NCBI GenBank assembly: GCA_000004695.1
Contig: CM000152.2
Location: 2,624,001-2,688,000 of the forward strand
Direction: 5' to 3'
Source: Dictyostelium discoideum
Lineage: Eukaryota
DNA: 64,000 nt
Part shown: piece by piece, positions 1 to 63,500 of the stretch
Position numbering within the stretch: position 1 is the first letter of the stretch
How the letters are laid out: each line of letters starts with the position of its first letter
Translations under genes and position numbers: made by a program
The notes under the pieces: model-generated
The model's input: the letters and a program-made list of their open reading frames with translations, nothing else
The model's database searches: none
Told to the model about the DNA's origin: nothing

Positions 1-706
1 TGGGTCAGTTACCATAACAGCAACTTCACCAGTACCGAGAGTTGATTCAACTTTGTAAGCAACACCAATGGTGAAAGTGGTACCGTGTGGACCAGAAGCT
101 GGTGAAACATCGCTAGTTAAAACAGTGGCATTACTATTTTGATTTTTTGGGCAAACAGTTAATTCTTCACAAATCCAAACTGGATCAGCATCTTCACCAA
201 TGTTATTGAAAACTTTAAGGAATTCATCAATACCAACGATATCACATAAAAGATTGCAAGCACCTAAAATTAATAAAATAAAAAATAAAAAAATAAAAAA
301 AATAAAAAAAAAGTATTAAAATTTGTTTGAAGTATTAATAGTAAAAGTAATAATAAAAATAAGATTTTTTTTTTTTTGTTTTTTTTTTTTTTCTTAAATC
401 TTACCTTGTTCAATATTATTTGGGAGTAATGAACAAACGGCACCACATGAAGTGGCAATACCACCTGAAATAATTTTTTCTAAATCACCCATATCGTTAT
501 TGATGAAGTCGACGCTAATTAAAAAAAATAAAAAAATAAAAAAATAATAATATTAGATATAAAATGAAATATTATTATTTTTATAATTATTTTTTTTTTA
601 TTTCTTTTTTTCACACATACCATGTTGGACATAAACTGAATTGGAGATCAGCTTTGACTAATGAAGCAATGAATAAAATAGCAATTGTGATATATTTAAT
701 CATCAT
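1..706 (-). CDS. Secreted small cysteine-rich protein with saposin-like (SAPLIP/amoebapore-like) Cys spacing; exons 621..706, 405..514, 1..263 (3' end beyond window start)
   Basis: Minus ATG at 706 followed by hydrophobic signal peptide MMIKYITIAILFIASLVKA; donors GTATGT (620) and GTAAG (404), AT-rich introns ending AG; junction phases consistent (…LCPT|CVDFINNDMGDLEKIISGGIATSCGAVCSLLPNNIEQ|GACNLLCDIVGIDEFLKVF…); paired cysteines. Confidence 0.55.
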
Positions 707-1509
707 TTTTTATATATATATTCTCTATGTTTTTGATAAAAAATGAAAAGAAAGAAAAAAAAAAAAAAAAAAAAAAAAATGAAAAAACGATTCAAAAAAA
801 AAAAAAAAAAAAATAATAATAATAAAAAAAAATAAAAAAAAAAATAATTAAAAATATCTTGAGGTCGATGATTTCATTCACAATTGCACAAACCCATTTT
901 TTTAAAAATTTGTGATTTTTTTTTTTTCCAATAATTTTTTTTTTTTTTTTTCAAAACGACTAATTTTTGTATGTGATTTTTTTTTTTTAAACAACTACCT
1001 TTTTGTATGTGATTTTTTATGATTTTTTTTTTTTCACTTTTTTTTATTTATTTATTTATTTTTCATTTTCCATAGTTCACGTATAAATGTCTTTTGAAAA
1101 TTGTTTAAAAAATAAATTGAGAATAAATAGATTTTTAAAAAAAAGATTGATTAAAATTGTATCAAAAAATAATTTTTTTATTCTTATCATTTCTTTTTTT
1201 TAATTTTTTATTATTTTATTATTTTATTATTTTATTAATTTTTATTTTTGTTTCTGAATTCTAATTAAATTTTTTATTTTTTTTATGAAACAAACTGCAA
1301 GAAAAAAAAAAAAAAAAAAAAAAAAAAATTAAAAAAAAAAAAAAATTTAATGTGGTAAACAAAATTTTATTTTTAGCTTTTTTTTGAATAAATTAAGTAC
1401 TTCTTCTGATAAAATGATTAAGAATTTCAATAGAAGGGACACTGGTATTCGAAGATATTATTGTGTAGTTTTGAGAACTTGTGGTGGTCGAGGAAATTAA
1501 TTCTGGTGG

Positions 1510-1620
1510 GTTTTGTTGGTGAATAATAATTATACTCAAATAAATAATAATATTTTATCAATTATTATGGCTTAAAATATTATTATTTATTTGAGTGTAA
1601 TTGTTATTCACCAACAAAAC
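1510..1620. repeat. Near-perfect 47-bp-stem hairpin (arms 1510-1556 / 1574-1620, 17-nt loop); candidate hairpin RNA or MITE
   Basis: Left arm gttttgttggtgaataataattatactcaaataaataataatatttt vs reverse complement of right arm differs at 2 positions, both G:U-compatible. Confidence 0.6.
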
Positions 1621-2011
1621 ATTATCATTTCGGCTTGAGATTTTAGGTCTTTTTGAAGCACGTAGTGGGACGTACCATTTAACTAAAAATTAAAGTTAGC
1701 ATCAAAATTTATTTAATTTTTAAAAATGATATAAATAAATTAATTATAAAAGTATATATACTAACATTTTTAAAAGGTTGTAGTTATTTCCAAAGAAAAT
1801 GATGGCGGTGAGGTCGAAAACAAGAGATCAGAGTTACCCAAACAAATTCAATCCCAGCACTTCACTTTGGTTGGTAAAATCACAGCAATCAAATCTGGTT
1901 ATGTTCCACAAATGAACAATAGTTTAAAAAGAGTGAGTGTTGAATTTCCTGCCTCTGTTGGTGATGTATTTATTAACAATTCTGGTTTCGTATGTATAAT
2001 TTCAACTTTTT

Positions 2012-2400
2012 TTTTTTTTTGAATTGGATAACGCAATTATTAGTTGCTTCTCCTTGAGATTCTAGATCTCATTTTATTTGTAGTTTTTACAGGGTCTCTA
2101 AAAGAGGGGTCACTTTTTTTTTTTTTTGTTTCAAATTTTGAATTGTATTATTACTTTTGATTAAAACATCTTTTTTGTCCAAACTTTTTTCTAAATCTTT
2201 TTTTATTTTATCATCAGCTTCATGATTGATGTTGATGACATATTTGAATTGTTTTTTTTTTATTTGAGTTTTATCCACAATTTCACTTATTTTTTGTAGG
2301 CATTTGTGTTGTTTGTAATTTTCATCTTATTTTCTTTCGATTTTTTTTATATTACTTTAAAAAGTTAAAAATCTGGAAATTTTCTGCAGCTCTTTGTGTT
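2012..2400 (-). mobile_element. TRE5-A non-LTR retrotransposon remnant (A/B-module incl. frameshifted ORF1 start fused to C-module, oligo-A tail)
   Basis: Reverse complement matches 51760-51960 (B-module/ORF1 N-terminus MKITNN…DKTQ.KKKQFKYVININHE.DDKIKKDLEKSLDKKDVLIK) and the C-module 53753-53844; T-run 2012-2025 is oligo(A) on minus strand. Confidence 0.7.
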
Positions 2401-3143
2401 TTAATTAGTTCGCGTATGACTTGTTGTCTATGAATTATTATTTCTTTTTCATCGTGGATGAGTTTGTTTCTTTTGTGCCAAATTATATAATTTCAACAAT
2501 CTTATAAAATATATATAAAATATAATATACTTTATGTGAATACATTTTCCTGGCGGCTTCAACTTTATCAGAATGGGACATTTGTTCGATTCTTTCAGGA
2601 GTATATCTAAGTTTATTCATTATCATAAAAATAAAATGTTTTTTTTATCTATTAATTGTACAATTGTAATATTATAAATAAAATGGTAAATTTTTTGTTT
2701 TTTTCATTTTAAGGTGTCCTAAGTTTGTCATTAATTAAAAAAAAAATTAAAAATAAATTTATTTAATTTGAAATCTATGAAAATTAACTTTTATAGATTT
2801 GGATTGTTTATTTTTTATTTATTCCCATATAAAATTTAAAAAAAAAAAAAAAAAAAAAATCTTGCAATAAATTTAAAAAAAAAATACGAGTTTTTATTTT
2901 TTTTTATTTTTTTTATTTTTTTTTTTTTTTTTTTAATTTTTTTTTTTTTTTCCCATAAATCTTAAAAACATCACCATTTATTTTTTGTTTCTAAATTCTA
3001 GTTTAAAATTTAAATTTTTTTTTATTTTATTATTTATTTTATTTCACACCAAAATGTTCGTTAATATTCCGCGGAATCCCAAATAATAAATGATTCTATT
3101 TCATTTTAAATTAAAATAACAATAATAAAAAAAAAAACACTAT

Positions 3144-3182
<39 letters not shown>

Positions 3183-3201
3183 TTTCAATTCATAATTTTC
3201 A

Positions 3202-4062
3202 ATGAACAAAAATAAAATAATAATAATAGCAATATCTTTGTTTTTTATATATTATTTCTTTTTATCAAGTTCAATTAATAAAAATAATACCAATAACAAT
3301 AATAATTTAAATAATAATAACAATAATTATAATAATCATAATAATTTAACAATTCATCGAAAACAAAAAATGTCAAAATTATTTAATTCAATCTTTATTT
3401 CTCATGGAGCACCAAATCTTATCTTAGATCATTCGGATAAAACAAGAGAATTTTTAAAAACATTATCAAAAAATCATTATGGTTCAGTAAAACCAAAAGC
3501 AGTTTTATTAATATCTGTAAGTATTATTACTATTATTATTATTTTATTTATATATTTATATATTTTCAAAATTTTAATTTTTTTTTATTGTTATTATTAT
3601 TTTTATTTTTTTTTTTAAATAGGCGCATTGGGAAGAAAGAGAATTTACAATTCAAACTAAACCAGAACCAGATGTAATTTATGATTTCGGTGGATTTGAA
3701 CCAGAGATGTACAGAATGAAGTATCCAGCAAAAACATCACCAGAATTAATTGATAGAGTATCAGAATTATTTGCAAAAGCAAAGATACCATTAGGAAAAG
3801 ATAATAAACGTGGATATGATCATGGTGCTTGGATGCCAATGAAATTGGTATATCCAGAAGCTGATGTACCAATAGTTCAATTATCTATAAAAGAAAATTT
3901 AAATGCTGCTCAACATTTTCAAATTGGTACAATTTTAAGACCATTAAGAGAAGAAGGTTATTTAGTTTTAGCTAGTGGTGGATCTGTTCATAATTTAAGA
4001 GCAATTTTTGATCCAAAATATCATTTAGATCCATCTTGGGCTTCAAAGTAAATATTATTAAT

Positions 4063-4101
<39 letters not shown>

Positions 4102-4376
4102 TTAATAATTATTATTTATAAATTTATTTTAGTTTTGAAGCATGGTTACAAAATACAATTTGTGAAAAGAGTGGTAAAGAACGTGAGGATGAACTTTTAA
4201 AATATGAAAGTTTACCATATTATAAACTTGCACATCCACGTTCTGAACATTTAATACCAGTTTTTGTAGCAGCCGGTTGTGCATCACCAGATTCAAAAGG
4301 TGTTAGAGTACATGATTTTTGGAAAACACCAGTTTTTAGTGTTTCAAGTTATTTATTCAGTGAACCAAACAATTAA
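3202..4376 (+). CDS. Extradiol ring-cleavage dioxygenase, class III subunit B (LigB/DOPA-dioxygenase family); exons 3202..3516, 3623..4047, 4133..4376
   Basis: Translation contains SHGAPNLILD…, HGAWMP, VLASGGSVHNL, IPVFVAAG motifs typical of LigB/YgiD; GTAAGT donor at 3517, GTAAAT at 4048, acceptors (t)nAG at 3622 and 4132; phases consistent. Confidence 0.75.
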
Positions 4377-4469
4377 TAAATAAAAATAAATTATTTATTT
4401 TACACATATAATAATTGTTTTGTTTTTTTTTTTAAAAAATTTATTTATTTGTTTTTATTTTTTTATTTT

Positions 4470-6347
4470 TTAAAAATTAATAGAAAATAAAGAGTCATTA
4501 TCATAATCATCATTATTATTATTATTAAAATTTTGATAATCTTCTAATTTAATAAAAGGTAATAAACCAAATGATTCCCATAAAGGAATTTTATTTGGAT
4601 TATTATGATTTAAGAATTCTAAAATATTTAAAGATTGGAAATATTGACCTTCTAAAAGTTTATCAATTAAAATTTTATTTTCATTAGTGAAAATAGTTAA
4701 TTTTAATCCACCTAAATTTGAAAAATGTGAAATTAATTTTTTAGATAATGAATCACTTATATATGGTATTATGATAATTTGAAATAATACATAAAGTCTA
4801 TCACTATTTAAAATTATATCATCTGATGGTGATGATGATGATGATGGCAATGGCATACCTTTAAATTGTTGTTCATTTAAATTTATTTGACCAAAACCAT
4901 TTGAAAGTAATTTAAAAATATTATAATATTTAAATTGATTTAAACCAAAGATTAATTCAAAGAATGGATTAGTTTCAATACAATTTGAATGAGATAAAAG
5001 TTTTGCTAAACAATTTAATAATGTTGAACAATTAATTTCAAAAAATGAAATATTTGAAATGAAGAATAATAATTGTTTAATATTACCATCAATAAAATAT
5101 TTTTCAATAATTGATGATAATTCATTTAAATTTAATGGAATCTTAATTAATATATATTTGTTTGGGATTTTATATTTTTTTGAACATAATAAAACTGCCA
5201 AATCCTTTTCAATTTCATTATATTTTTTTAAATTATTTAATAAATAACTTGTAATTATTGAATTCTCACCAATCATATTACAAATTGAATTAAAATTTTT
5301 TAATAAATTATTATTATAATTATAATTATTATTATTTTTATTCTTTGATAATTTTACTAAATCATTAAAATTTTGAAATTTATAATTATTAAAATAATCT
5401 TTAAATTCTAATACCATTTTTAAAAATATTTTTCTATTCTCTATTGGTTTTGGTAAATCACAAAGAAAATCTAAATATATTTCATTGATATCAGGTGAGG
5501 TTGTTTTATAAAAATATTTATTTTTTAAAATTGGTAATAATAGTTTGAAAAGATATGGATATCCAATATGTTTATGATTTGGTAAAGATTTTCTTAATAA
5601 TAAAATACAACTATGATTATTTAATGGTTCATAAATTGCTGAAGGTCTTAAAATGTCTATCTTTTCATTGATTATATAAGTAACTAAATTTTCATAACCA
5701 AGATCTATTAAATCTGATATTTTATTTATTGTTAATGAAAAAGAGGTTAAATAATCATCAAAATACTTTAAATTATCATTCATAATTTTACATTTATAAT
5801 AATCATTTTCCATTAATTTTGGTTTAAAATAAATTTGATTTCTAATGATATCATTTTCTCTAATACATTTATATTTAAAAATGATTTTACTTTTTGTTGT
5901 TTTAAAAGAGTTTATATTAAATTCATTTAATTGAACATTATTCTTTTTTAACATTTCAATAATATAATCAGCATAATCTGGATCGTTAACTTCAAATGGA
6001 TTAATTGGTCTATTATTTGCAAATAATTTTAATTCTAACCATACAGTTTCATTCATTAATTTAAATAATGGTAACATTTGTTTATTAGTTTTAAAAATTT
6101 TTAAATTAATTATATCTGCCAATTCTTTTAATGAAATTCTTTCACCAAAAATTTCAACAATACTTGAATCATCTTTTTTAAATTTGAATTTAAATTTTGA
6201 AAATAATTTCTTTACTAAATTTAAATCATCATTTTCAATTGATACATTAATTAATTTACAAATTTTATTAAATGTTTCATTATTTCTTTTAAAAAATGCA
6301 TCATTATTTAACAAATTAAATAATTCATTCCTTATTTCATTTATTGA

Positions 6348-8054: not shown

Positions 8055-8481
8055 TAGTATTTATAATTATATGAATTTAAAATTCATAATAATTAATTTA
8101 TAGATTTCAAGATTAAAGTTAAAATTAAACATTTAAGACAATATTTTTCCCCAAACAAAAATAAAATCCATTCTTTTAATTTTTTTTTTTCAAACAGCAA
8201 ATTCTGAAATTTCTTATATAATCTTTTTGAAAAATAAAAATAAATTAAAAGTTATTTATTTGTAATATATTGAGATAGGTATTTTTTTTTTTTTTGTTGT
8301 ATTTTTATTATTTTTATTTAAGTTTCAACAAATGATTTATAATTTAAAAACCAATATGGATAAAATGTTTAATTTACAATTTGTTTTTTAATTTTTCCTA
8401 AAGCTTTGAAAATACTATTTTTTTTTGAATTGGAATTGAAAATACTATCAATATCGCTATTAAAAATTAAATTTTCAACAA

Positions 8482-8553
8482 GTTTCGATAGCTCAGTGGA
8501 AGAGCAAGCGACTGCAAATCGTTAGGTCGCCAGTTCAATCCTGGTTCGGAACT
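8482..8553 (+). tRNA. tRNA-Cys (anticodon GCA)
   Basis: Cloverleaf: acceptor GTTTCGA/TCGGAAC, D-arm GCTC-AGTGGAA-GAGC, anticodon loop CTGCAAA, T-arm GCCAG-TTCAATC-CTGGT. Confidence 0.85.
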
Positions 8554-8666
8554 TTCATTTTTAATTTTTTATTTTGTTTTAAATGATTGCCCCCTCTGTT
8601 TCCTCTCGATTTATCATATTTTCATTAAAATCTGACCATATTTAAAAGAGATTCAGTCATTTTAAA

Positions 8667-8851: not shown

Positions 8852-10105
8852 ATGAATTCCTACGCAGACGCGGCTAAAATGGCCAACCCCTCCACCCATA
8901 TGGACGAGGCATCAGAGAACTTCATTAAGGAATTCTCCACAAAAACAGCAGAGATAAAGGAGACCTACCCCAAATTATCAATAGGCCTCAAAGACATCTC
9001 CAAATACTGCGAGACCATATTGAACATGACTGCGCTCTCAACCTACGAGAAAAACAACGGATTCTACCCAATTACACTCGAATTCCCCAAAATGGATCTC
9101 ATGGGGTTAGAAGAAATGAGAAAAACACTCTCAAACTACGATATCCCAATCGACAAGATATACATAGGCAAAGGAACTAGAAAAATGATCCACCTGATGA
9201 TTAAAAACGAACAATCTCTCCTAAATATCATTAGAGATAGAAGCAAATTGGGAACCTTCATCACCTCCAGTAGAGACTACCACGTCCTCACAGGAAGAGT
9301 AAGAATTCCAAGAGAAAAGGCAGGAATAGTGGACGCCCTCATCAAAACTGCCTTTGCAGAAGAAATACCCTATGCAATATACCATACTATATACTCCACC
9401 GACCACCTCCTAGTATTCGGTCTAATAGAATGCAAAATAGGCGATCAAATGAAATCTGGCCAACACAATACAGAAATCGCCAACTTTACCATCAGAACGG
9501 CCACCAAAACCTACTCCTCACAAAAGAAAAATAAGAAAGTAGAGTCAAACAACACGGAAGAACCATTAGAAGATGAGATGACAGATGATCCTCCCAACAC
9601 CCAAAACAGGATAGCAATCAAATCCTCTCAACCAAAACCACAACAACAAACAAACAACCCAGCAAAAAATCAGTCTGATAAACAATCAACCCAAGAGAAA
9701 AAAGCCCAATCAAAAAAGCCCTCTCAACCTCTTCCCCCCAAAAACCAAGCAGAATCTCAATCTGTCAAACCCACCACAACCACTACCACAACATCCAACG
9801 CCATCCAAAAAGACAATGCCAACAAAACGAGCACTAACATCCATTCATCCTCGGAAAACAGAGAGAAGACACCAAACATCCCTCCATCACATAAACGCAA
9901 GAACGAGGAAATCCACTCAAACAACGAGGTCACCCAACTCTCACCAACAATAAACAGAAGCAACCCTTACATCCCATCCACCCCTAAGACACCTGTCAAA
10001 AATGAAAGGAAAGGAATCATTGAGAGCTTCATAGAGAGTATCTACCCTTCACCATCCAAACCGCAGCTATACGACTCCCAAGAGGAGATCGATATCATCT
10101 CATAA
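8852..10105 (+). CDS. TRE3 ORF1 (nucleic-acid-binding/Gag-like protein)
   Basis: 417-aa ORF, basic/Q,T,N-rich C-terminus; stop TAA overlaps next ATG (TAATG at 10103-10107). Confidence 0.7.
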   Translation: MNSYADAAKMANPSTHMDEASENFIKEFSTKTAEIKETYPKLSIGLKDISKYCETILNMTALSTYEKNNGFYPITLEFPKMDLMGLEEMRKTLSNYDIPIDKIYIGKGTRKMIHLMIKNEQSLLNIIRDRSKLGTFITSSRDYHVLTGRVRIPREKAGIVDALIKTAFAEEIPYAIYHTIYSTDHLLVFGLIECKIGDQMKSGQHNTEIANFTIRTATKTYSSQKKNKKVESNNTEEPLEDEMTDDPPNTQNRIAIKSSQPKPQQQTNNPAKNQSDKQSTQEKKAQSKKPSQPLPPKNQAESQSVKPTTTTTTTSNAIQKDNANKTSTNIHSSSENREKTPNIPPSHKRKNEEIHSNNEVTQLSPTINRSNPYIPSTPKTPVKNERKGIIESFIESIYPSPSKPQLYDSQEEIDIIS

Positions 10106-10953
10106 TGGTAGTAATCAAAATCAACCAATGGAATGTCAGAGGTTGGGGCACTGACACCTCCTTCAAAAACAAAACAGACTTTATCAAATCCCAATCCCCC
10201 CCAAACTCATTGGCACTAACCATAGTCAATGAACTCAACGCCGACGCAACACAAGCACACCAGCTATTTCCTGGCTCCATCATTAGCGCAACCAACAGAG
10301 GCAACGGAATAGGAATACTAAACCACAACAACCAAAACATAAAACTCTCACCAATATTCATAATAGAAGGTAGACTAATAATATCAGACATTCTAATAAA
10401 AGATACCACAACGAGAATCTTGGCCATATACGCCCCGGCCCAACCTGATAAAAGAAAAACACTAGCTTCAACACTAAACAAACACTTCAACAACCAATAC
10501 CACAACCTAACGTCTAACCCTAATAAAAACATCGACATCATAGCAGGCGACTTCAACTGTTTAGACTTCAATGACAATCACACATCAAATGATGACCAAG
10601 GCAACTTGACAACACAATCCCCAGATGAGATGGCCACAGTAATCGAAGCCATCAGAATTTCAAATAACCTAATGGATATGGACCAACTAAATAAAAGACC
10701 CACCTTCTCAAGAACGATACACAACACAAACAATAACCTCACAAGAATCTTGGAAAGGAGACTAGACAGAATATACCTTAACAATAGCATAATCAACTAC
10801 AGCCAATTATACTTAAGGAACCTAATCCCCCCAAAAATTAACAACATACCTCTATCAGATCACAACTTCCTATCAACCACCTTCACTCTACCCAACATAC
10901 AGATGAACATGCGCAGATGGAGATTAAAAAATCCTCAATCCTCTCAAGCATAA
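10105..10953 (+). CDS. TRE3 ORF2 N-terminal part: apurinic/apyrimidinic-like endonuclease domain
   Basis: WNVRGW…, IAGDFNCLDFNDNH, LSDHNFL motifs of L1-type EN; overlaps RT ORF by 37 nt. Confidence 0.7.
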   Translation: MVVIKINQWNVRGWGTDTSFKNKTDFIKSQSPPNSLALTIVNELNADATQAHQLFPGSIISATNRGNGIGILNHNNQNIKLSPIFIIEGRLIISDILIKDTTTRILAIYAPAQPDKRKTLASTLNKHFNNQYHNLTSNPNKNIDIIAGDFNCLDFNDNHTSNDDQGNLTTQSPDEMATVIEAIRISNNLMDMDQLNKRPTFSRTIHNTNNNLTRILERRLDRIYLNNSIINYSQLYLRNLIPPKINNIPLSDHNFLSTTFTLPNIQMNMRRWRLKNPQSSQA

Positions 10954-13808
10954 TGCTTAAGAAAATAGACTTCCTACTTAACGATTATTCAAGGGAGTTG
11001 TCATCCAACCATAACTCTATTTCCTTCTCTCAACTCAACAGCTTACTGAACAAAATAAAACAACTATACACAGAATTTCAAAAACAAAACGACTACAACA
11101 ATAAGGCAAACATCAAAAATCTAATCTCCCTACTAGAGACAGAATTTAAAGACCAAGCCTTCGCAACCCTTTCAGCAATAAATGAATCTAAAAGAAGAGA
11201 AGAACAACTTAAACAAGAATTGAACAACTATTGCGAAGAAACCTCACTCAAGTACATCTCCGCGAGAATCAAGAAAAGACATAATGATTTCACCATCAAC
11301 GCAGTAAAAGATGCACAAGGTAGAACAATTAACAAACAGGAATTGATCGAAGAAGAATACGTAAAATATTACTCAAATCTTTATGACTACAAAGAAGATG
11401 ACCCACCATCTCATTATGAAATGTTGGAAAATTGGACAGTGACCAGGGACTCAACATGGGACAACCTTGAAAACGAATTCACATCACAAGAGATCCTAGA
11501 AGTAATAAAACAATTGAACCCACACAAATCTCCAGGCCCAGATGGAATTCCAAACTTATTCTACATAACACACAAAGAAAAACTAGCTCCAATACTGGCC
11601 TCAGCATTCAACGACACTCTAAGAAATCCTCATCTAATTAGCAAAAATTACAAAGAAGGCCTCATTATCACGATACCTAAAAAGGGAGACCCCGAACTAA
11701 TCAAAAACAGAAGACCAATTACACTGGCCAACTGTATATATAAAATCCACTCAAAACTAATAAACAATAGAATAATCCCAATACTAACGAAAGTGATCAA
11801 CCACAATCAAAAAGGTTTCGTACCAGGCAGATTCATTCTAGATAATATCATATCAATGAACGAATTAATCAACTATTGTAATGATAAAAGAATAAACGGA
11901 ATAATTACACTATATGATTTCGAAAAAGCTTTTGACTCGATCTCACACGGTTCAATACTCAGATCACTACAACACATCAACATTCCAACCAATATAATCA
12001 ACCTGATAATGAATCTACTCACCAAATCTGAAGCAAGAATTGAAATTAATGGTAGAACTACTATACCCTTTGAGATCAAAAGAGGAGTTAAACAAGGAGA
12101 TCCACTATCACCCACCCTGTTCGTCCTTGTAATAGAGGCTTTAGCTAGAAAAATTTTACAAGATGACCGAATTACTGGCCTTCCTCTAAACAACAGCAAC
12201 CACAGAGAGAAATTCCAAAGCTTTGCAGACGACTCGGCTTCAATGGTCCCAGACTCTCAACAACTTGAATTAGTACTACAACACTTCAATTCATTTTGCA
12301 AAGCCACTTCCTCAAAACTAAACATCGACAAATCTTCATCAATTCTTATAGGCAACCCAGACAATACCAACCAAAGAATTCCAATATCTACAAATCCAGA
12401 AAGATACTTGGGATACTTCTTCACAGGCAAAGGGATAACAAGAAAAATGCCAGAAATATTAAACACAATAAGATCATCCTTAGTACTATGGAAAACCACT
12501 GACTCAACAATCAAAACCAAAACCAACATCCTCAAAGCATTCGCACTCTCTAAATTAACCTACTATTCATATGTAGAGAACTTTAAGGAAGAGGAATTAA
12601 ACCAAATCAATAAATTAGTCGAATGGTTTTTATCGGCACCAAACAACAAAAATGCTAGTGGATTTCAAGTTATTAATTTAATGAGAACCAAAAGAGCAAG
12701 ATACCCACTAAAAGTAGGAGGCTGGAACATTTGGAATATAGAATTGAGACAACTGGCGCAGAAACTTTGGATCATAAACCAGTTCATCCTAGCACTAGAA
12801 ACCAAACAAACAAACTCATCTCATCACAAAAGCTGGGAATATCAGATCCAAAAAAACAAATTCACATCCAGATACCTAAAAGAAAACTTAGACGAATGGA
12901 ACAAAATAAGAATAAAAAAAGCAATCTTCAACAATAATCTCACATCCATAAAAAACGAAAATGGACAACCACTTTCACTGGCAGAATGGTATACCACAAT
13001 TCAAGACCAAAATCCAACCATCCCTAAAACGGAATTCCAATCATCTCTAAACTTAAGAGGCTACAGCTATAATCAACTCTTCAACAATATACTGAAGATA
13101 AAAGACCCTAAAACAAGAGACACAATGTTTAGATTCCATGCCAGATGCCTTCCAATAAACTACCTTCACAACAAACAATGCCCACTCTGCAAAGAAGATA
13201 TGAGCAAAGACCCATACGGTCACCTGTTCTTCTCATGCAAGAAAACAAAACAATTCATAAAAATAAATAAACTCAAAAATTTCATCTTTATTACCACAGG
13301 CAAAGGTAAAAACTGGCACCATACAAGAATTAGGCAAAATAACAATTTCATTAATAGAATAACTCCAAAATTATCACCGACAGCCAAAAAAGATCAAGAA
13401 GTGAATGCAGATTACGCCAACCACAGATTCCACAAAGAATACTTTGAATGGAACTATAAAGCAATAGACTATGATCTAACCAGATCATTCGCATATAGAA
13501 ACCTAATGGCCCTTATCCTCCACAACATTTGGATTTGGATTTGCAATCAAATATACAGTGAAGATCCTTTAACAGATGAATCACTATCATACAGCTCCCT
13601 TCTAAAGAAATGGCACAAATTGGCCACTCTAGAATACATCAAAAAAGCAAAAGATCTGAAAAACTTATCAGCAAAAGACCATAATAACTTCAAAGATCCT
13701 AAGATCCTTCTCACTTCAACGATCAAGCTAAGAAAAACAACAGCTAATTACTATTGTATTCCAGAATCATCTCTCCCAAATATTATATCTTTTGATCAAT
13801 TCATATGA
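10917..13808 (+). CDS. TRE3 ORF2 reverse-transcriptase part (-1 frame relative to EN ORF)
   Basis: RT motifs PKKGDPE…RPITL, YDFEKAFDSISH, FADDSA; C-terminal Cys/His region. Confidence 0.75.
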   Translation: MEIKKSSILSSIMLKKIDFLLNDYSRELSSNHNSISFSQLNSLLNKIKQLYTEFQKQNDYNNKANIKNLISLLETEFKDQAFATLSAINESKRREEQLKQELNNYCEETSLKYISARIKKRHNDFTINAVKDAQGRTINKQELIEEEYVKYYSNLYDYKEDDPPSHYEMLENWTVTRDSTWDNLENEFTSQEILEVIKQLNPHKSPGPDGIPNLFYITHKEKLAPILASAFNDTLRNPHLISKNYKEGLIITIPKKGDPELIKNRRPITLANCIYKIHSKLINNRIIPILTKVINHNQKGFVPGRFILDNIISMNELINYCNDKRINGIITLYDFEKAFDSISHGSILRSLQHINIPTNIINLIMNLLTKSEARIEINGRTTIPFEIKRGVKQGDPLSPTLFVLVIEALARKILQDDRITGLPLNNSNHREKFQSFADDSASMVPDSQQLELVLQHFNSFCKATSSKLNIDKSSSILIGNPDNTNQRIPISTNPERYLGYFFTGKGITRKMPEILNTIRSSLVLWKTTDSTIKTKTNILKAFALSKLTYYSYVENFKEEELNQINKLVEWFLSAPNNKNASGFQVINLMRTKRARYPLKVGGWNIWNIELRQLAQKLWIINQFILALETKQTNSSHHKSWEYQIQKNKFTSRYLKENLDEWNKIRIKKAIFNNNLTSIKNENGQPLSLAEWYTTIQDQNPTIPKTEFQSSLNLRGYSYNQLFNNILKIKDPKTRDTMFRFHARCLPINYLHNKQCPLCKEDMSKDPYGHLFFSCKKTKQFIKINKLKNFIFITTGKGKNWHHTRIRQNNNFINRITPKLSPTAKKDQEVNADYANHRFHKEYFEWNYKAIDYDLTRSFAYRNLMALILHNIWIWICNQIYSEDPLTDESLSYSSLLKKWHKLATLEYIKKAKDLKNLSAKDHNNFKDPKILLTSTIKLRKTTANYYCIPESSLPNIISFDQFI

Positions 13809-23682: not shown

Positions 23683-23860
23683 GCCCAAAATTACCATATT
23701 AATTTCAGCAGCCATATTAATTTCAGCCTAAAATAGTTGGTCTGTGCATGCCAAAATTAATATGGCTGCTGAAATTAATATGGTAATTCTAGCAGACATA
23801 AGTCCCATGCCAAAATTACCATATTAATTCCAGCAGCCATATTAATTTTGGCATGGGACA
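23683..23860. repeat. Palindromic repeat family 2, complete composite copy (three alternating inverted units)
   Basis: gcccaaaattaccatattaatttcagcagccatattaatttcagc … reverse-complement unit … direct unit. Confidence 0.65.
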
Positions 23861-51506: not shown

Positions 51507-51535
51507 TGCGACTTTTGGTCTCCCTGATTAAAAAG

Positions 51536-51607
51536 CTCCCCATTCGGGAATCGAACCCGAGGTACCAGTGTGAAAGACTAGAGTGTTACCGACTACACCA
51601 ATGAGGA
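51536..51607 (-). tRNA. tRNA-Glu (anticodon UUC)
   Basis: TCCTCAT-TG-GTGT-AGTCGGTA-ACAC-T-CTAGT-CTTTCAC-ACTGG-TACC-TCGGG-TTCGATT-CCCGA-ATGGGGA-G; all stems pair. Confidence 0.85.
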
Positions 51608-51719
51608 TTTGGTTTGAATTTTGATTTTTTTATATAATAAAATTTCACGTTTTTTGGAAAAAAACAAACAACAACAACAATCTCTTTTTTTGATTATTTC
51701 ATTTTTCATATAAAAAAGA

Positions 51720-51754
<35 letters not shown>

Positions 51755-51829
51755 GGAACCAAGTTAATTAGAAAATTTCCAGATTTTTAACTTTTTAAAG
51801 AAAAATAAAAAAGATAGAAAGAAAATAAA

Positions 51830-53164
51830 ATGAAAATCACAAACAACACCACAAATATTAAGCAACACAAATGCCTACAAAAAATAAGCGAAATTGTGGA
51901 TAAAACTCAATTAAAAAAAAAACAATTCAAATACGTCATAAACATCAATCACGAACCAGACGATAAAATAAAAAAAGATTTAGAAAAAAGTTTGGACAAA
52001 AAAGATGTTTTAATCAAAAGTAATAATACATTCAAAATTCTCACAGACAGTATTAGTACAGTAATCTATTTTGTAAATATGTTTGATGCAGAATTAAAAG
52101 GACAATTTATAACCACTATAAGACCAAAAAATATGTATACAGATTTTGATTGGTATAAATCACTCACAGAAATAGAATGGGTAATAGAAAATGAAGGATG
52201 TAAACTAATTAAATCAGAAATTAAAGGCGAAACTCTAATTATCAAAACAGTGAAAAGAGTCGTAGAAGAATTTGACACTATCATTGAACTAGACAATCTA
52301 ACATTAATTGGACACTCCAACAAAGGATGGAGAGATCAAACCTCATTACCAGAAAATCAAGAAGAAAACAAAAATAAAAAACAATCAGATGAACAACAAC
52401 CACAATCTACATCAGAACAAATACCAAAACAAGGAAAAAGAACAATCATTATCCCACCAATCACATCCTCATCTAATGATAAAACATTTATGGCCCTAGA
52501 TGATACAGCTCAAAAGGTAATAGAAGCATCACTAGAAAACGTAGATGAACTAACAAGAATAGAGAATGAGATCAATACACAATCGATAAACAATCAAGAA
52601 ATTAAAACAAAATCAGAAAAACCTATCGAACCACCATCTCCATACAATACACCAATAAAACAACACGGCGAAACAAAGGGACTAACAACGGAAGAAAAAC
52701 TTAGAGAGGCAAATGATATCTTCGACTTCACCAGCCCAAACACTGATGCAATAAGAAAAATAGAATTCCCACTTTCAATCCCTTCAAATCAATGGTTCTT
52801 CTCCTCTCCAATAAAACATATCATGAGTTTCAGCCCAACCTATGGTACACCATCGAAAATTATCGATTCACCAAGTAAATTGTTAAACACACCAAAAAAG
52901 AAACAACAAGACAAAACAAACAAGACCAACAAAACACCAGTCAAACCAAAATTGGGTGAATATGGACAAAAAAGCATAAAAACAAAAATGGATGAAGATA
53001 TAGACAACTTCAACAAGGAAATTCTAAAACAAATCAATAAATCAAAAAACCCCACAAACACACAAGACCAACAACACAACGAACAAAGTAAAGATCAGTT
53101 AGAAGACAAAATAAACCAGAAACTTCAAAAGGTAGATAAAAATCTACCCCAAATAAAACTATAA
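51830..53164 (+). CDS. TRE5-A ORF1 protein
   Basis: 444-aa ORF; N-terminal 60 aa repeated in 3' B-module and in remnant at 2087-2330. Confidence 0.7.
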   Translation: MKITNNTTNIKQHKCLQKISEIVDKTQLKKKQFKYVININHEPDDKIKKDLEKSLDKKDVLIKSNNTFKILTDSISTVIYFVNMFDAELKGQFITTIRPKNMYTDFDWYKSLTEIEWVIENEGCKLIKSEIKGETLIIKTVKRVVEEFDTIIELDNLTLIGHSNKGWRDQTSLPENQEENKNKKQSDEQQPQSTSEQIPKQGKRTIIIPPITSSSNDKTFMALDDTAQKVIEASLENVDELTRIENEINTQSINNQEIKTKSEKPIEPPSPYNTPIKQHGETKGLTTEEKLREANDIFDFTSPNTDAIRKIEFPLSIPSNQWFFSSPIKHIMSFSPTYGTPSKIIDSPSKLLNTPKKKQQDKTNKTNKTPVKPKLGEYGQKSIKTKMDEDIDNFNKEILKQINKSKNPTNTQDQQHNEQSKDQLEDKINQKLQKVDKNLPQIKL

Positions 53165-53418
53165 AGAAAAACACAATAAGAATAGGTGTTTGGAACGTCC
53201 AAGGATCCAACACCATCCAATCTGCCAGCATAATAAACACCGTTTTAGACAACAACAAGCTGGACGCAGCACTTCTAACTGAAACAAATATAAAAACAAA
53301 TAAAATTTACTCAATAAATCAACAATATAAAAACAAAATAACACACCACGCACCAATTGATAAAACAGGACAAGGGGTGTCACAAATCATCATCAACACC
53401 CGCAATAGAACTTCCTAA
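53161..53418 (+). pseudogene. TRE5-A ORF2 5' fragment (AP-endonuclease N-terminus), truncated by internal deletion
   Basis: IGVWNVQGSNTIQSASIINTVLDNNKLDAALLTETNIK… in -1 frame relative to ORF1, followed by poly(A) 53463-53518. Confidence 0.55.
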
Positions 53419-53460
53419 ACATCTCAAAAAATACAATAATTCACTCAGTACTTTCTATAA

Positions 53461-53520
<60 letters not shown>

Positions 53521-54077
53521 CAAGTTAATCAGAAAAATAAAAAAGATAGAAAGAAAATAAAAGGAAAATCACAAACAACACCACAAATATTAAGCAACAC
53601 AAATGCCTACAAAAAATAAGCGAAATTGTGGATAAAACTCAATTAAAAAAAAAACAATTCAAATACGTCATAAACATCAATCACGAACCAGACGATAAAA
53701 TAAAAAAAGATTTAGAAAAAAGTTTGGACAAAAAAGATGTTTTAATCAAAAAGACCCTGTAAAAAAAAAAAAAAAAATAAAATGAGATCTAGCATCTCAA
53801 GGAGAAGCAAATAATAATTGCGTTATCCAATTCAAAAAAAAAAAAATTTCACGTTTTTTCGAATTAAATAAATTATAAAATTTCAAAATTTTTTCCAGAT
53901 TTTTTAATATTCAATTTTTCCCCATTGGAATCATTAAAAATAATGAAAAATATGTATTATTAAACGAAAATGTAACATTTTAAATGTATATTTGTTTAAA
54001 TAAAAAAATTATTTCGGTTCAAAAAAAAAAAAAAAAATTAAAAATAAAAAAAAAAAAAAAAGTCGTTCGTTTTTTAA

Positions 54078-60549: not shown

Positions 60550-63500
60550 TTATTTTCTAATTTCCCCATACCCCCTTCTATTAATTGCAACCAAATCAAG
60601 TTCTAATTTTTGTGTCCTTGTTAACTTTGTTTTTGCAACTTTTTTTGAAGGTATCACATTAACGATTTTTCCTATTGATGGTGATTTGGAAGGTGATTTA
60701 AATGGTGATTTAAAAGGTGAATTGGAAGGTGATTTAAATGGTGAATTGGAAGGTGAAATGGATGGTGATTTGGAAGGTGATTTAAATGGTGATTTGGAAG
60801 GTGATTTAAATGGTGATTTAAATGGTGAATTGGAAGGTGAAATGGATGGTGATTTGAGAGGTGATTTGGATGGTTTAGAATGTGATTTTAAAGGAGGTTT
60901 ATTAACAATTGGTATCTTATGAGGACGGCCTCTGAGACGTTTAACAGTTGTTACTATACCACTACCAGATTGTGGTATAGTATACGATGGTATTATTTGC
61001 ACTTGAGGTATTGGTGGTACTATTTCTTTTAAATTCATATCCTTTCTCAAACAATTCATTAAATTTGGCGCTGTTGGATTATTATTTAAAAATGGGAGTA
61101 TTTCTTCTTGTTCCATTTCATTATTGAGTTTGTGTTGAAATGGATTATCGTTAATGATAGGTGGAATATTTGATGGATTGTTAAGAGCATCTTCCAAAAC
61201 CCTAAATGGATCATTTTGTGTTACCAATTGATGCAAGTTGAAATTGGATAAATCCTTACCAAGATTTTTAATAAACTGAACCAGAAATTCAATAACTTTC
61301 CCATCATTATTTAAATAAAGACCAGAAGTAAAAGAATCAATATCTTTTTGTATGTTTGGCGATGTTCTAAAAATATCAACTGTTGATTGTTTATAAAGAA
61401 CCAACTTGTTACCTCCTACAAAACCAGAGTATAAACCTTTTTTTTGAAGGCTATTGATTCCATCTTCCAAAAATTCAAGTTTATAAAGTTGTTTAGTGTC
61501 TTCCTGTATTACCTTATGAATTTTACACAAAATCAATATTTTCTATTAGAATTAAATATAAAATTTGTTAATTATTACTGTTTCATATATTATTAATCTT
61601 TATGTTTTAATTACTTACATTATTTTTTTTAATTTCTAGAAAGAGTACAGTATCACCAACTTTCAATCCCTTTGGTGGTTTTGAATTCCATTGATTTTGG
61701 TAACTTGTGAGATTTTCAAGAATAATAGCTGTTCTTTCTTCTTTTGAAACATCTGAAACACCAATTGATTGAGAGTCTTGTTCTGATTGAACATTAATAA
61801 ACAAAGGAACAATACCAACAGCTTGAGATGGTGTCATTTTAATTGTTCTTGTTTTTGTATTATTGTAATCATACAAAGCTTGTTTTAATAGTTCAGAAAG
61901 AGACCTAGAAGTACCATCAAGAAAACTAAAATTTATTTATAAATGATTAATTAATAAACATATCGATAATTTATATTGTTCACAATATCATACTCTTGTT
62001 GTTTTAATTTTGAGATCCTCTCCTTGATAGTTCGATTCAATCTTTCTACCATACCTTGAGTTGTTGGTGTACGAGGAGCTCCATGTGCTGACTTGGAGCC
62101 TGGAAAAAGTTTTAGGAATTCTTTTTGGACTTTGTTTTTAAATTCACGTCCATTATCGCAGTGCCATACTTTCACAGGTTTGCCAAAGTACGTGAGAGCC
62201 AAAAAATTGTATATGGGAACTGTTCTCTTTGTTGTCAAACATCTAAAAAATAAATGATAATTAAAATAAAAAAAGAAAACTAATAAATTAATAAATAAAA
62301 AATAAATACCTTCCAGTAGCAAATTTTGTAAAAGAATCTATGCATAGAATAATGTAAACAACATCGGTGTCGTACGGTTGTACAGAGTCATATTGGATAA
62401 GATCATCTAGTTTAGTTAGTATCTTTTCATTATCATCATCGTATGTAACTTTTTCTTTATGTTCACCTTTAATTGATGTTAAATCATAAACCAATCTTGA
62501 GTATTCCTCGGTATCTACAATTGGAGCAAAATCCTTTGTTATACCTATTAATTTATTTAAATTATTAAAAGAGTTTTAATATAAAAGTTACAAAACATCA
62601 TATAAAAATGATTGATACCAAACCTTTTATTCTATTTCGTTGGCAAATGTCACACGTATCTACTGCATCAGATACAAAAGAATACAATCCCATATTATAA
62701 TATTTAGTCTTGTAGTTCCCATAGGTTGCATCTCTTCCTACACAGCGAAGAAAAAACCACCTTTAAATTCGCTTTAAATTAAATTTAAATTTGCTTTAAA
62801 GTCCTGAATTAAAGCAATTTTAAAGGTAATTTTAAAGGTAATTTTTAAGGTTACTTTAAAATCACCTTAAAAATTACCTTTAAAATTCCTTTAAAAATTA
62901 CTTTTTTAATCGCTTTAAAAGCGAGGTCCTGAGTTCGAAGCCGTTATTTAACGGATAAATTTTTTAAAATTTTTTTTTTAATTTTTCAAAAAATTACCAA
63001 AAGGGATTCGATCCCCCGACCCTCTATCAAAGGGTAGTCTCATCAACCATTACACCATTTGATTGCTTTGATGAAAATTTAAAAATGATAGAATATTTTA
63101 TCCCCATTTTTTTGTTCTAAAATTAGATCTTTTTTATTAAAAACCTTAAATTTATGTTTAAAGGAAATTTAAATTCACTTTAAATCTACTTTAAATCTAC
63201 TTTAAATTCTATTTAAAATTAATTTAAAATAAATTTTAAAGGTATTTTTAAATATCTTAAAAATTATCTTAAAAATTACCTTAAAAATCACCTTTAAAAT
63301 CACCTTTAAAATCACCTTTAAAATTGCTTAAAAATTTATTTTAAAGCAAATTTTAAAGGCATTTTTAAATATCTTTAAAATTACCTTAAAAATTACCTTA
63401 AAAATGAATTTTTTAAACGCGGCTTTAAATTCAATTTAAATCCAATTTAAATCAACTTTTCTTTAAATTTGCTTTAAAGGTGCATTTTTCTTTGCTGTGT

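Follow-up and report, generated by a model that had tools for sequence, protein, structure and literature searches.

Multicopy miRNA loci associated with the element thug-S have reportedly been described by Avesson 2012 (with Meier 2016), and plant proto-MIRNA genes are said to arise by inverted duplication, in a model attributed to Allen et al. 2004. For Dictyostelium discoideum, both intronic miRNAs and miRNAs derived from a DNA transposon, thug-S, exist, and thug-S itself is a multicopy hairpin-bearing element with published small RNAs (PMC6161686, PMC4894637). For the same species, it was furthermore proposed that 21-nt RNAs may come from an inverted fragment of the retrotransposon Skipper (Hinas et al. 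2007, PMC2175303). [quoted passage not shown]

Here we describe a hairpin in a 64-kb stretch of D. discoideum chromosome 3, the whole of which is referred to below as the window. Its structure is that of a long and almost perfect inverted repeat, it is single-copy in the DNA compared, it is restricted to certain strains, and it lies in a transposon context.

Structure of the hairpin and of similar loci

A repeat search of the 64-kb window and RNA folding both recovered the hairpin that the original prediction had placed at 1510-1620. It is composed of the following parts, each delimited by repeat search and folding:

1510-1557, + strand: 5' arm of the inverted repeat, 48 nt
1558-1572, + strand: spacer or loop, 15 nt, TCAATTATTATGGCT
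1573-1620, + strand: 3' arm, 48 nt, with G1597 and G1603 opposite T1533 and T1527

The structure had been described with a 47-nt stem and a 17-nt loop; this is the same fold, but with the innermost A:T pair omitted, and the full hairpin has a stem of 48 nt and a loop of 15 nt. The two arms are 96% complementary (46/48 positions), the non-complementary positions being T1527/G1603 and T1533/G1597. As had been claimed, both differences are U:G wobbles in the RNA of the + strand, in which all 48 stem positions pair and the stem is uninterrupted, while in the RNA of the - strand both become A:C mismatches. Folding energy had been suggested as a check, and the 111-nt + strand RNA indeed folded with -58.6 kcal/mol (z = -16.0), compared with -50.0 kcal/mol (z = -14.5) for the - strand RNA. 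None of 200 dinucleotide shuffles folded as well as the hairpin, and the folds were also run with flanking sequence. A search of the window allowing three mismatches matched the two arms only, with 0 matches expected by chance.

Library artefacts can create palindromes, and a chimeric fold-back read could in principle have introduced the hairpin during sequencing or assembly. We regard such an artefact as extremely unlikely, since the independent assembly GCA_054883475.1, which is 99.7% identical over 17 kb of the window, contains an identical hairpin, and since a fold-back read would not account for the two differences between the arms. In addition, the window encodes the AX4 protein DDB_G0279839 exactly.

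To place the hairpin among other inverted repeats, ~189 kb of D. discoideum-group DNA were scanned for arms of at least 30 nt with at least 90% pairing and a loop of at most 60 nt in complex sequence. Only four kinds of locus were returned, namely the hairpin, a mir-7131 locus, a palindrome at 62.8 kb and a tRNA-His inverted repeat present in two other isolates, which indicates that the hairpin is real and rare. The mir-7131 family (RF03716) matched the window at 23757-23845 on either strand, with 96 and 91 bits, both above the Rfam gathering score. The corresponding hairpin at 23747-23855, located 22 kb from the hairpin at 1510-1620, has 48-nt arms at 94%, a 13-nt loop and a folding energy of -64 to -76 kcal/mol, and its mismatches are wobble-only on one strand. 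An extra arm-like copy of it was seen at 23685-23723. We infer, beyond anything stated in the papers, that the mir-7131 locus probably belongs to the multicopy miRNA loci associated with thug-S.

The palindrome at 62811-62904 has 41-47-nt arms that are 87-90% complementary around a spacer of 0-12 nt, and its units are AAAGGTAATTTT-like repeats. The tRNA-His(GTG) inverted repeat was found in two other D. discoideum isolates (L005 2441-2640 and L007 3499-3717), where it is located between a ComC-like gene and a 254-aa gene. Its arms of 70-77 nt are 90-91% complementary and separated by 41-45 nt, and ARAGORN called a tRNA on one arm only. This repeat may represent a further inverted duplication within the neighbourhood of the hairpin.

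Gene model and mobile-element fragments around the hairpin

The hairpin had been described as intergenic. This holds for a newer assembly, whose gene calls include none between window positions 718 and 3369, but not for the AX4 annotation, which places the hairpin in intron 1 of DDB_G0279839. A 71-aa ORF adjoining the hairpin was 100% identical to this hypothetical protein of D. discoideum AX4, and threading the complete 110-aa protein onto the DNA gave the following gene model:

1414-1464, + strand: exon 1
1465-1776, + strand: predicted intron 1, 312 nt, with GT..AG borders, holding the hairpin
1777-1989, + strand: exon 2
1990-2364, + strand: intron 2
2365-2433, + strand: exon 3

Among 5.8 billion proteins, the DDB_G0279839 protein had no relative but itself and formed a one-member cluster, and the name DDB_G0279839 did not occur in the literature searched by full text. 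The neighbouring LigB-family gene is DDB_G0279843. Peptides from all short ORFs around the hairpin gave no Pfam match, and five ORFs that overlap the hairpin had no exact counterpart in the protein collection. For the minus-strand peptide 1396-1554, an HMMER search of 1.8 billion representatives returned two weak matches, which were judged to be low-complexity.

The DNA next to the hairpin contains fragments of mobile elements:

1777-2005, + strand: pogo/Tc5-like transposase fragment, of which 1777-1989 is exon 2 of DDB_G0279839 (DNA and protein comparison)
2008-2384, - strand: 3' remnant of TRE5-A, with a B-module-like part, terminal module and oligo(A) tail (alignment to a TRE5-A-like element)
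2531-2874, - strand: second fragment of the DNA-transposon family, with an N-terminal helix-turn-helix peptide (2620-2531) and the region upstream of it (2626-2874) (homology)

The transposase fragment was compared with three other copies of its family, L005, L010 and L014. Window positions 1760-2005 are 82% identical in DNA to L014 6100-6355, positions 1769-1887 are 87% identical to L005, and positions 1777-1983 have 78% protein identity to P0027. We label the family pogo/Tc5-like on the basis of motifs read by eye and of the PF03221 (HTH_Tnp_Tc5) record of the related protein P0026, a record that the contig gene table flags as weak. Scanned directly against Pfam, the transposase fragments of L005 and the window gave nothing above cut-off, and no full-length member of the family was present among the sequences compared. 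The second fragment is homologous to L005 4467-4804 and L010 6603-6769.

The retrotransposon remnant that the original prediction had noted next to the hairpin is the TRE5-A remnant on the - strand. It accounts for nearly all of intron 2 of DDB_G0279839, and on the + strand its oligo(A) tail (A14) is visible as the T-run at 2008-2021. When reverse-complemented, 2384-2008 aligned with both 51772-52042 (5' B-module region) and 53486-53846 (3' end) of a reference copy located head-to-head upstream of a tRNA gene (tRNA-Glu, 51535-51607), and the remnant ends in the same terminal ~70 nt plus oligo(A) as this element. The assignment to TRE5-A is based on the B-module at both ends of the reference copy and on the 3'-terminal module with oligo(A), module names being taken from established knowledge and PMC4559204. 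As the C-module of TRE5-A has an antisense promoter (PMC4559204), it was considered as a driver of the hairpin and rejected, since in the remnant it points away, toward higher coordinates.

The reference copy itself, a TRE5-A-like element at 51535-53860 arranged head-to-head with tRNA-Glu(UUC), has ORF1 at 51830-53164 and a B-module region that is duplicated at 51772-52042 and 53486-53750, the latter followed by the terminal module and oligo(A); its ORF2 appears to have been deleted. Elsewhere in the window, a series of three ORFs (8852-13808), the gene call for which carries RVT_1, lies ~300 bp downstream of tRNA-Cys(GCA) at 8481-8554. We take this arrangement to be as expected for a TRE3-type tRNA-targeted retrotransposon.

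The idea that the hairpin flanks (LVVVEEINSGG, SIEGTLVFEDIIV, LEILGLFEARSGT) are a diverged transposase exon (VVVISKENDGG, NIDEKGILFTKSNSK) was also examined and dropped. Smith-Waterman comparisons with L005, L010 and L014 against shuffles gave z values of at most 3 and no alignment there, and MAFFT alignment gave no convincing homology.

The DDB_G0279839 model is weak because the protein is an orphan, because the newer assembly makes no call here, and because exon 2 and intron 2 consist of transposon debris. Most likely it is not a gene but what appears to be a chain of transposon fragments across 1414-2433 that is compatible with splice sites. This bears on the view that the hairpin, located as it is within predicted intron 1, acts in cis, either by joining the splice sites of a 312-nt intron, which is long for Dictyostelium, or as a terminator or cruciform. 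Such a role is highly improbable in our judgement: the host model lacks both a homolog and a gene call in the newer assembly, transposon debris makes up its exons, and in the relatives L005 and L014 the hairpin is missing and the intron at this place is either short or absent.

Strain distribution and copy number

The orthologous locus was obtained from eight further assemblies, found via the 90% cluster of the LigB protein, and was compared by BLAST with window positions 600-3500. L003, which is from the same assembly as L001, matched the window across the whole spacer. Six assemblies lacked one block in the spacer upstream of LigB:

1346-2886, no strand assigned: strain-specific block of ~1.55 kb, with approximate boundaries in A/T runs (BLAST against orthologous spacers)

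Within the block lie the hairpin, the two transposase fragments and the remnant of TRE5-A. The six assemblies without it are those of L007 (D. discoideum GCA_054859355), L004 and L008 (D. cf. discoideum), L006 (D. firmibasis), and L002 and L009 (D. citrinum). In these, the left flank (to ~1286-1328) is contiguous with the right flank (from ~2891), and in L007 the flanks are just 41 bp apart (site L007 5647-5689). With A/T runs at both boundaries, a target-site duplication of the 1.55-kb block could not be delimited. As the block is absent from the same spacer in six related assemblies, sequence comparison indicates that it is specific to the AX4-type D. discoideum lineage. The hairpin locus is likewise absent from these six, and its sole other copy is identical, which means that no covariation test is possible. 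Orthologs with compensatory changes, as expected for a conserved structured RNA, were not found, and the locus is not conserved even within the species.

At L005, a further D. discoideum isolate has a different fragment of the same DNA-transposon family (~1 kb, L005 4400-5404), which is positioned ~100 bp further to the left, in the opposite orientation and without the hairpin. None of the other transposon-family copies examined had a comparable hairpin. L005 and L010 have the terminal motif ACACCCGCCCTGTTTTGCA in common, and this motif is not present in the window. Judging from these sequences, the family has evidently been mobile, leaving different deletion derivatives behind, with independent insertions in two isolates.

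Within the strain-specific block, the part that carries the hairpin stands alone:

1346-1768, no strand assigned: unique hairpin-carrying segment, with no homolog in the transposon-family copies or other DNA compared (BLAST comparisons)

This segment of 420 bp, with a GC content of 21-26%, had no match elsewhere in the 64-kb window, none in L005, L010 and L014, and none in the ~250 kb of related DNA compared in total (blastn-short). A search for further genomic copies, which had been proposed together with the hairpin, found no second or partial copy in the window and ~190 kb of other D. discoideum-group loci, and the arm pattern gave 0 matches in a scan of JGI metagenomes. The longest non-self matches of the arms in the ~250 kb were AT-rich strings of 16 nt (blastn-short), and the same DNA contained neither a founder (parental single-copy) sequence for the arms nor a candidate target longer than 16 nt.

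The copy number is relevant to the alternative reading, put forward with the original prediction, of a very short foldback transposon. The hairpin would then be a miniature foldback or MITE-type DNA transposon, formed by two terminal inverted repeats and a 15-bp core and inserted into an older transposon fragment. The palindromic architecture would suit such an element, as would the nest of mobile elements around it, the mobility of the host transposon family with its independent insertions in two isolates, and the precedent of thug-S as a multicopy hairpin-bearing element (PMC6161686, PMC4894637). However, the hairpin lacks a target-site duplication: its flanks, which read CTGGTGG up to the left border and ATTATCA from the right border (GAGGAAATTAATTCTGGTGG and ATTATCATTTCGGCTTGAGA), contain no direct repeat and no TA. 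The absence of any second or partial copy from the DNA searched also goes against this reading, and the arms resemble neither the family terminus ACACCCGCCCTGTTTTGCA of L005 and L010 nor the mir-7131 locus. Moreover, non-homology reaches ~160 bp to either side of the hairpin, which means that the hairpin is not a clean insertion. We therefore consider a MITE-type origin very unlikely.

Small RNAs, origin and known systems

The other reading that accompanied the original prediction was that of a Dicer substrate or miRNA precursor. We searched fragments of the arms in RNA and DNA letters; such short fragments miss small RNAs that start at some arm positions. By this short-fragment search, the arms were absent from the supplements of Liao 2018 (PMC6161686), which contain hairpins with read pile-ups, of Meier 2016 (PMC4894637), and of Edelbroek 2024 (PMC11014262), which contain D. 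discoideum miRNAs and failed candidate clusters. In the full text of the literature, the fragments gave one irrelevant plant paper only. The chromosome 3 coordinates in the part of the Liao 2018 supplement that we used, at 3.66 and 3.74 Mb, are away from the hairpin. The name mir-7131 was also not present in the published supplements checked, nor in the literature searched, which shows that the published lists searched are incomplete; Avesson 2012 was outside the scope of the search. An Rfam search of window positions 1-6000 gave MIR831 only, at chance level (22.3 bits versus a gathering score of 100, E = 0.34). Judged by the published lists searched (short-fragment search) and Rfam, the hairpin is not among the catalogued D. 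discoideum miRNA precursors.

The claimed precursor geometry was borne out. The criteria of Table S1 of Liao 2018 ask for a folding energy under -0.2 kcal/mol/nt and pairing of no less than 60% of the duplex bases, together with 10 or more reads from each of 5p and 3p, a 3' overhang of 0-4 nt and 5'-end homogeneity of at least 50% (PMC6161686). The hairpin lies inside the energy and pairing limits, with -0.53 kcal/mol/nt over 111 nt and 48/48 positions paired, and published D. discoideum miRNA hairpins in the supplement have -0.52 to -0.58 kcal/mol/nt. Its stem, loop and energy per nucleotide thus match those of published D. discoideum hairpins and of the mir-7131 locus. In short, the geometry of a miRNA precursor stands, but the arms are missing from the published miRNA supplements and the hairpin has no Rfam family.

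These data leave some room for the reading that the hairpin is an expressed hairpin-RNA locus, that is a newborn miRNA or a source of hairpin siRNAs, the + strand transcript of which gives the 48-bp stem; DrnB with RbdB, or DrnA, would then produce 21-nt RNAs that are loaded into Argonaute. We treat this as a tentative possibility, and on balance an unlikely one. In its favour are the similarity in geometry and energy per nucleotide to known D. discoideum precursors and the mir-7131 locus, and the fact that both mismatches are U:G on the + strand. The position in a predicted intron also fits, given that intronic and transposon-derived miRNAs are known here (PMC6161686, PMC4894637), as do the young amoebozoan miRNAs, whose hairpins are long and whose duplexes have 0-1 mismatch (PMC11014262), and the precedent of the inverted Skipper fragment as a possible small-RNA source (PMC2175303). 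Upstream of the hairpin, at ~1262-1287, a T-rich run ending in G resembles, by eye, the TSS motifs in the part of Liao 2018 consulted, but such runs are found everywhere in the D. discoideum genome. Against expression, the supplements of three studies on small RNAs in AX-lineage cells contained none of the short arm fragments searched, and the Liao 2018 chromosome 3 coordinates, for the part of that supplement used, fall elsewhere. Conservation of the hairpin is lacking even between isolates of D. discoideum, the DNA compared contained no candidate target of more than 16 nt, and transcription of the region is only putative, the host gene model being an orphan chimera. The stronger form of this reading, in which a miRNA or hairpin-siRNA gene has been caught at birth, exists in the AX4 type only and already yields Dicer-dependent 21-nt RNAs, strikes us as quite improbable.

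Our preferred explanation, which we hold to be probable though by no means secure, is that the hairpin is a young inverted duplication that arose at the DNA level in mobile-element debris and has no evidence of function. It would have started as a DNA-level accident in a region repeatedly broken by mobile-element insertions, with fold-back or template-switch synthesis during repair or replication creating the 48-bp arms and the 15-bp spacer. We infer this mechanism with no direct trace of it, such as a parental single-copy sequence. The hairpin would so far be selectively neutral. If the + strand were transcribed, for instance as intron 1 of DDB_G0279839, the product would be an uninterrupted 48-bp RNA duplex and as such an ideal Dicer substrate, which Dicer-like nucleases would cut to roughly 21-nt RNAs. 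A hairpin diced in this way would be raw material for a new miRNA rather than an established miRNA gene, and a proto-miRNA at best.

The pattern of arm differences is compatible with neutrality. At both of them, the 5' arm has a T where the 3' arm implies a C, a pattern that C-to-T change at two sites would leave in an AT-biased genome without any selection for RNA pairing. By our estimate, two random differences would both be transitions, and both wobble-compatible on one and the same strand, with a probability of ~0.15; that the mismatches are all wobbles is a poor argument for selection on RNA. What speaks against the neutral reading is that wobble compatibility on the + strand, which is the strand of the gene model, is what selection on an RNA stem would give, although the chance of it is ~0.15, and that the hairpin has the same geometry as mir-7131, a bona fide miRNA locus in the window.

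Were the hairpin expressed, one would have a dated case of miRNA-like loci arising from transposon wreckage in an amoebozoan; we consider the importance modest. If the gene has indeed been caught at birth, its natural presence/absence polymorphism could be used to study the de novo origin of small-RNA genes in Amoebozoa. One by-product of the analysis is that the 1.55-kb block is polymorphic within D. discoideum, being present in some isolates and absent from others; another is the evidence that gene model DDB_G0279839 is likely spurious.

As an inverted duplication, the hairpin resembles the plant proto-MIRNA genes, which are said to be near-perfect inverted duplications that give siRNA-like products before mismatches accumulate. 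The arms of the plant genes reportedly match a founder or target gene, whereas the hairpin has no founder sequence in the DNA compared. MITEs and foldback transposons are similar in that nearly the whole element consists of terminal inverted repeats; unlike these, the hairpin has no target-site duplication and no other copies in the DNA compared.

Within the window, the geometry of the mir-7131 hairpin is almost identical, and both loci are associated with DNA-transposon sequence (PMC4894637, PMC6161686), but there is no sequence similarity between them, RF03716 matching at 23757-23845 only. The thug-S miRNA loci are multicopy and have published small RNAs, whereas the hairpin is single-copy in the DNA compared and has no reported small RNAs. 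With the inverted Skipper fragment the hairpin shares its setting, a region of transposon debris able to fold back (PMC2175303); the Skipper stem of ~320 bp, with a 900-nt loop, consists of recognisable Skipper sequence (PMC2175303), in contrast to the 48-bp stem of the hairpin, which lies in a segment with no match in the DNA compared. The young amoebozoan miRNAs have sequenced 5p/3p duplexes that pass annotation criteria, while the short arm fragments of the hairpin were absent from the supplements of the same paper (PMC11014262). In other respects they are similar to the hairpin, as they combine a long stem and very few mismatches with restriction to a lineage or species (PMC11014262), and as in their case, too, whole 'miRNA modules' are present or absent between close relatives (PMC11014262).
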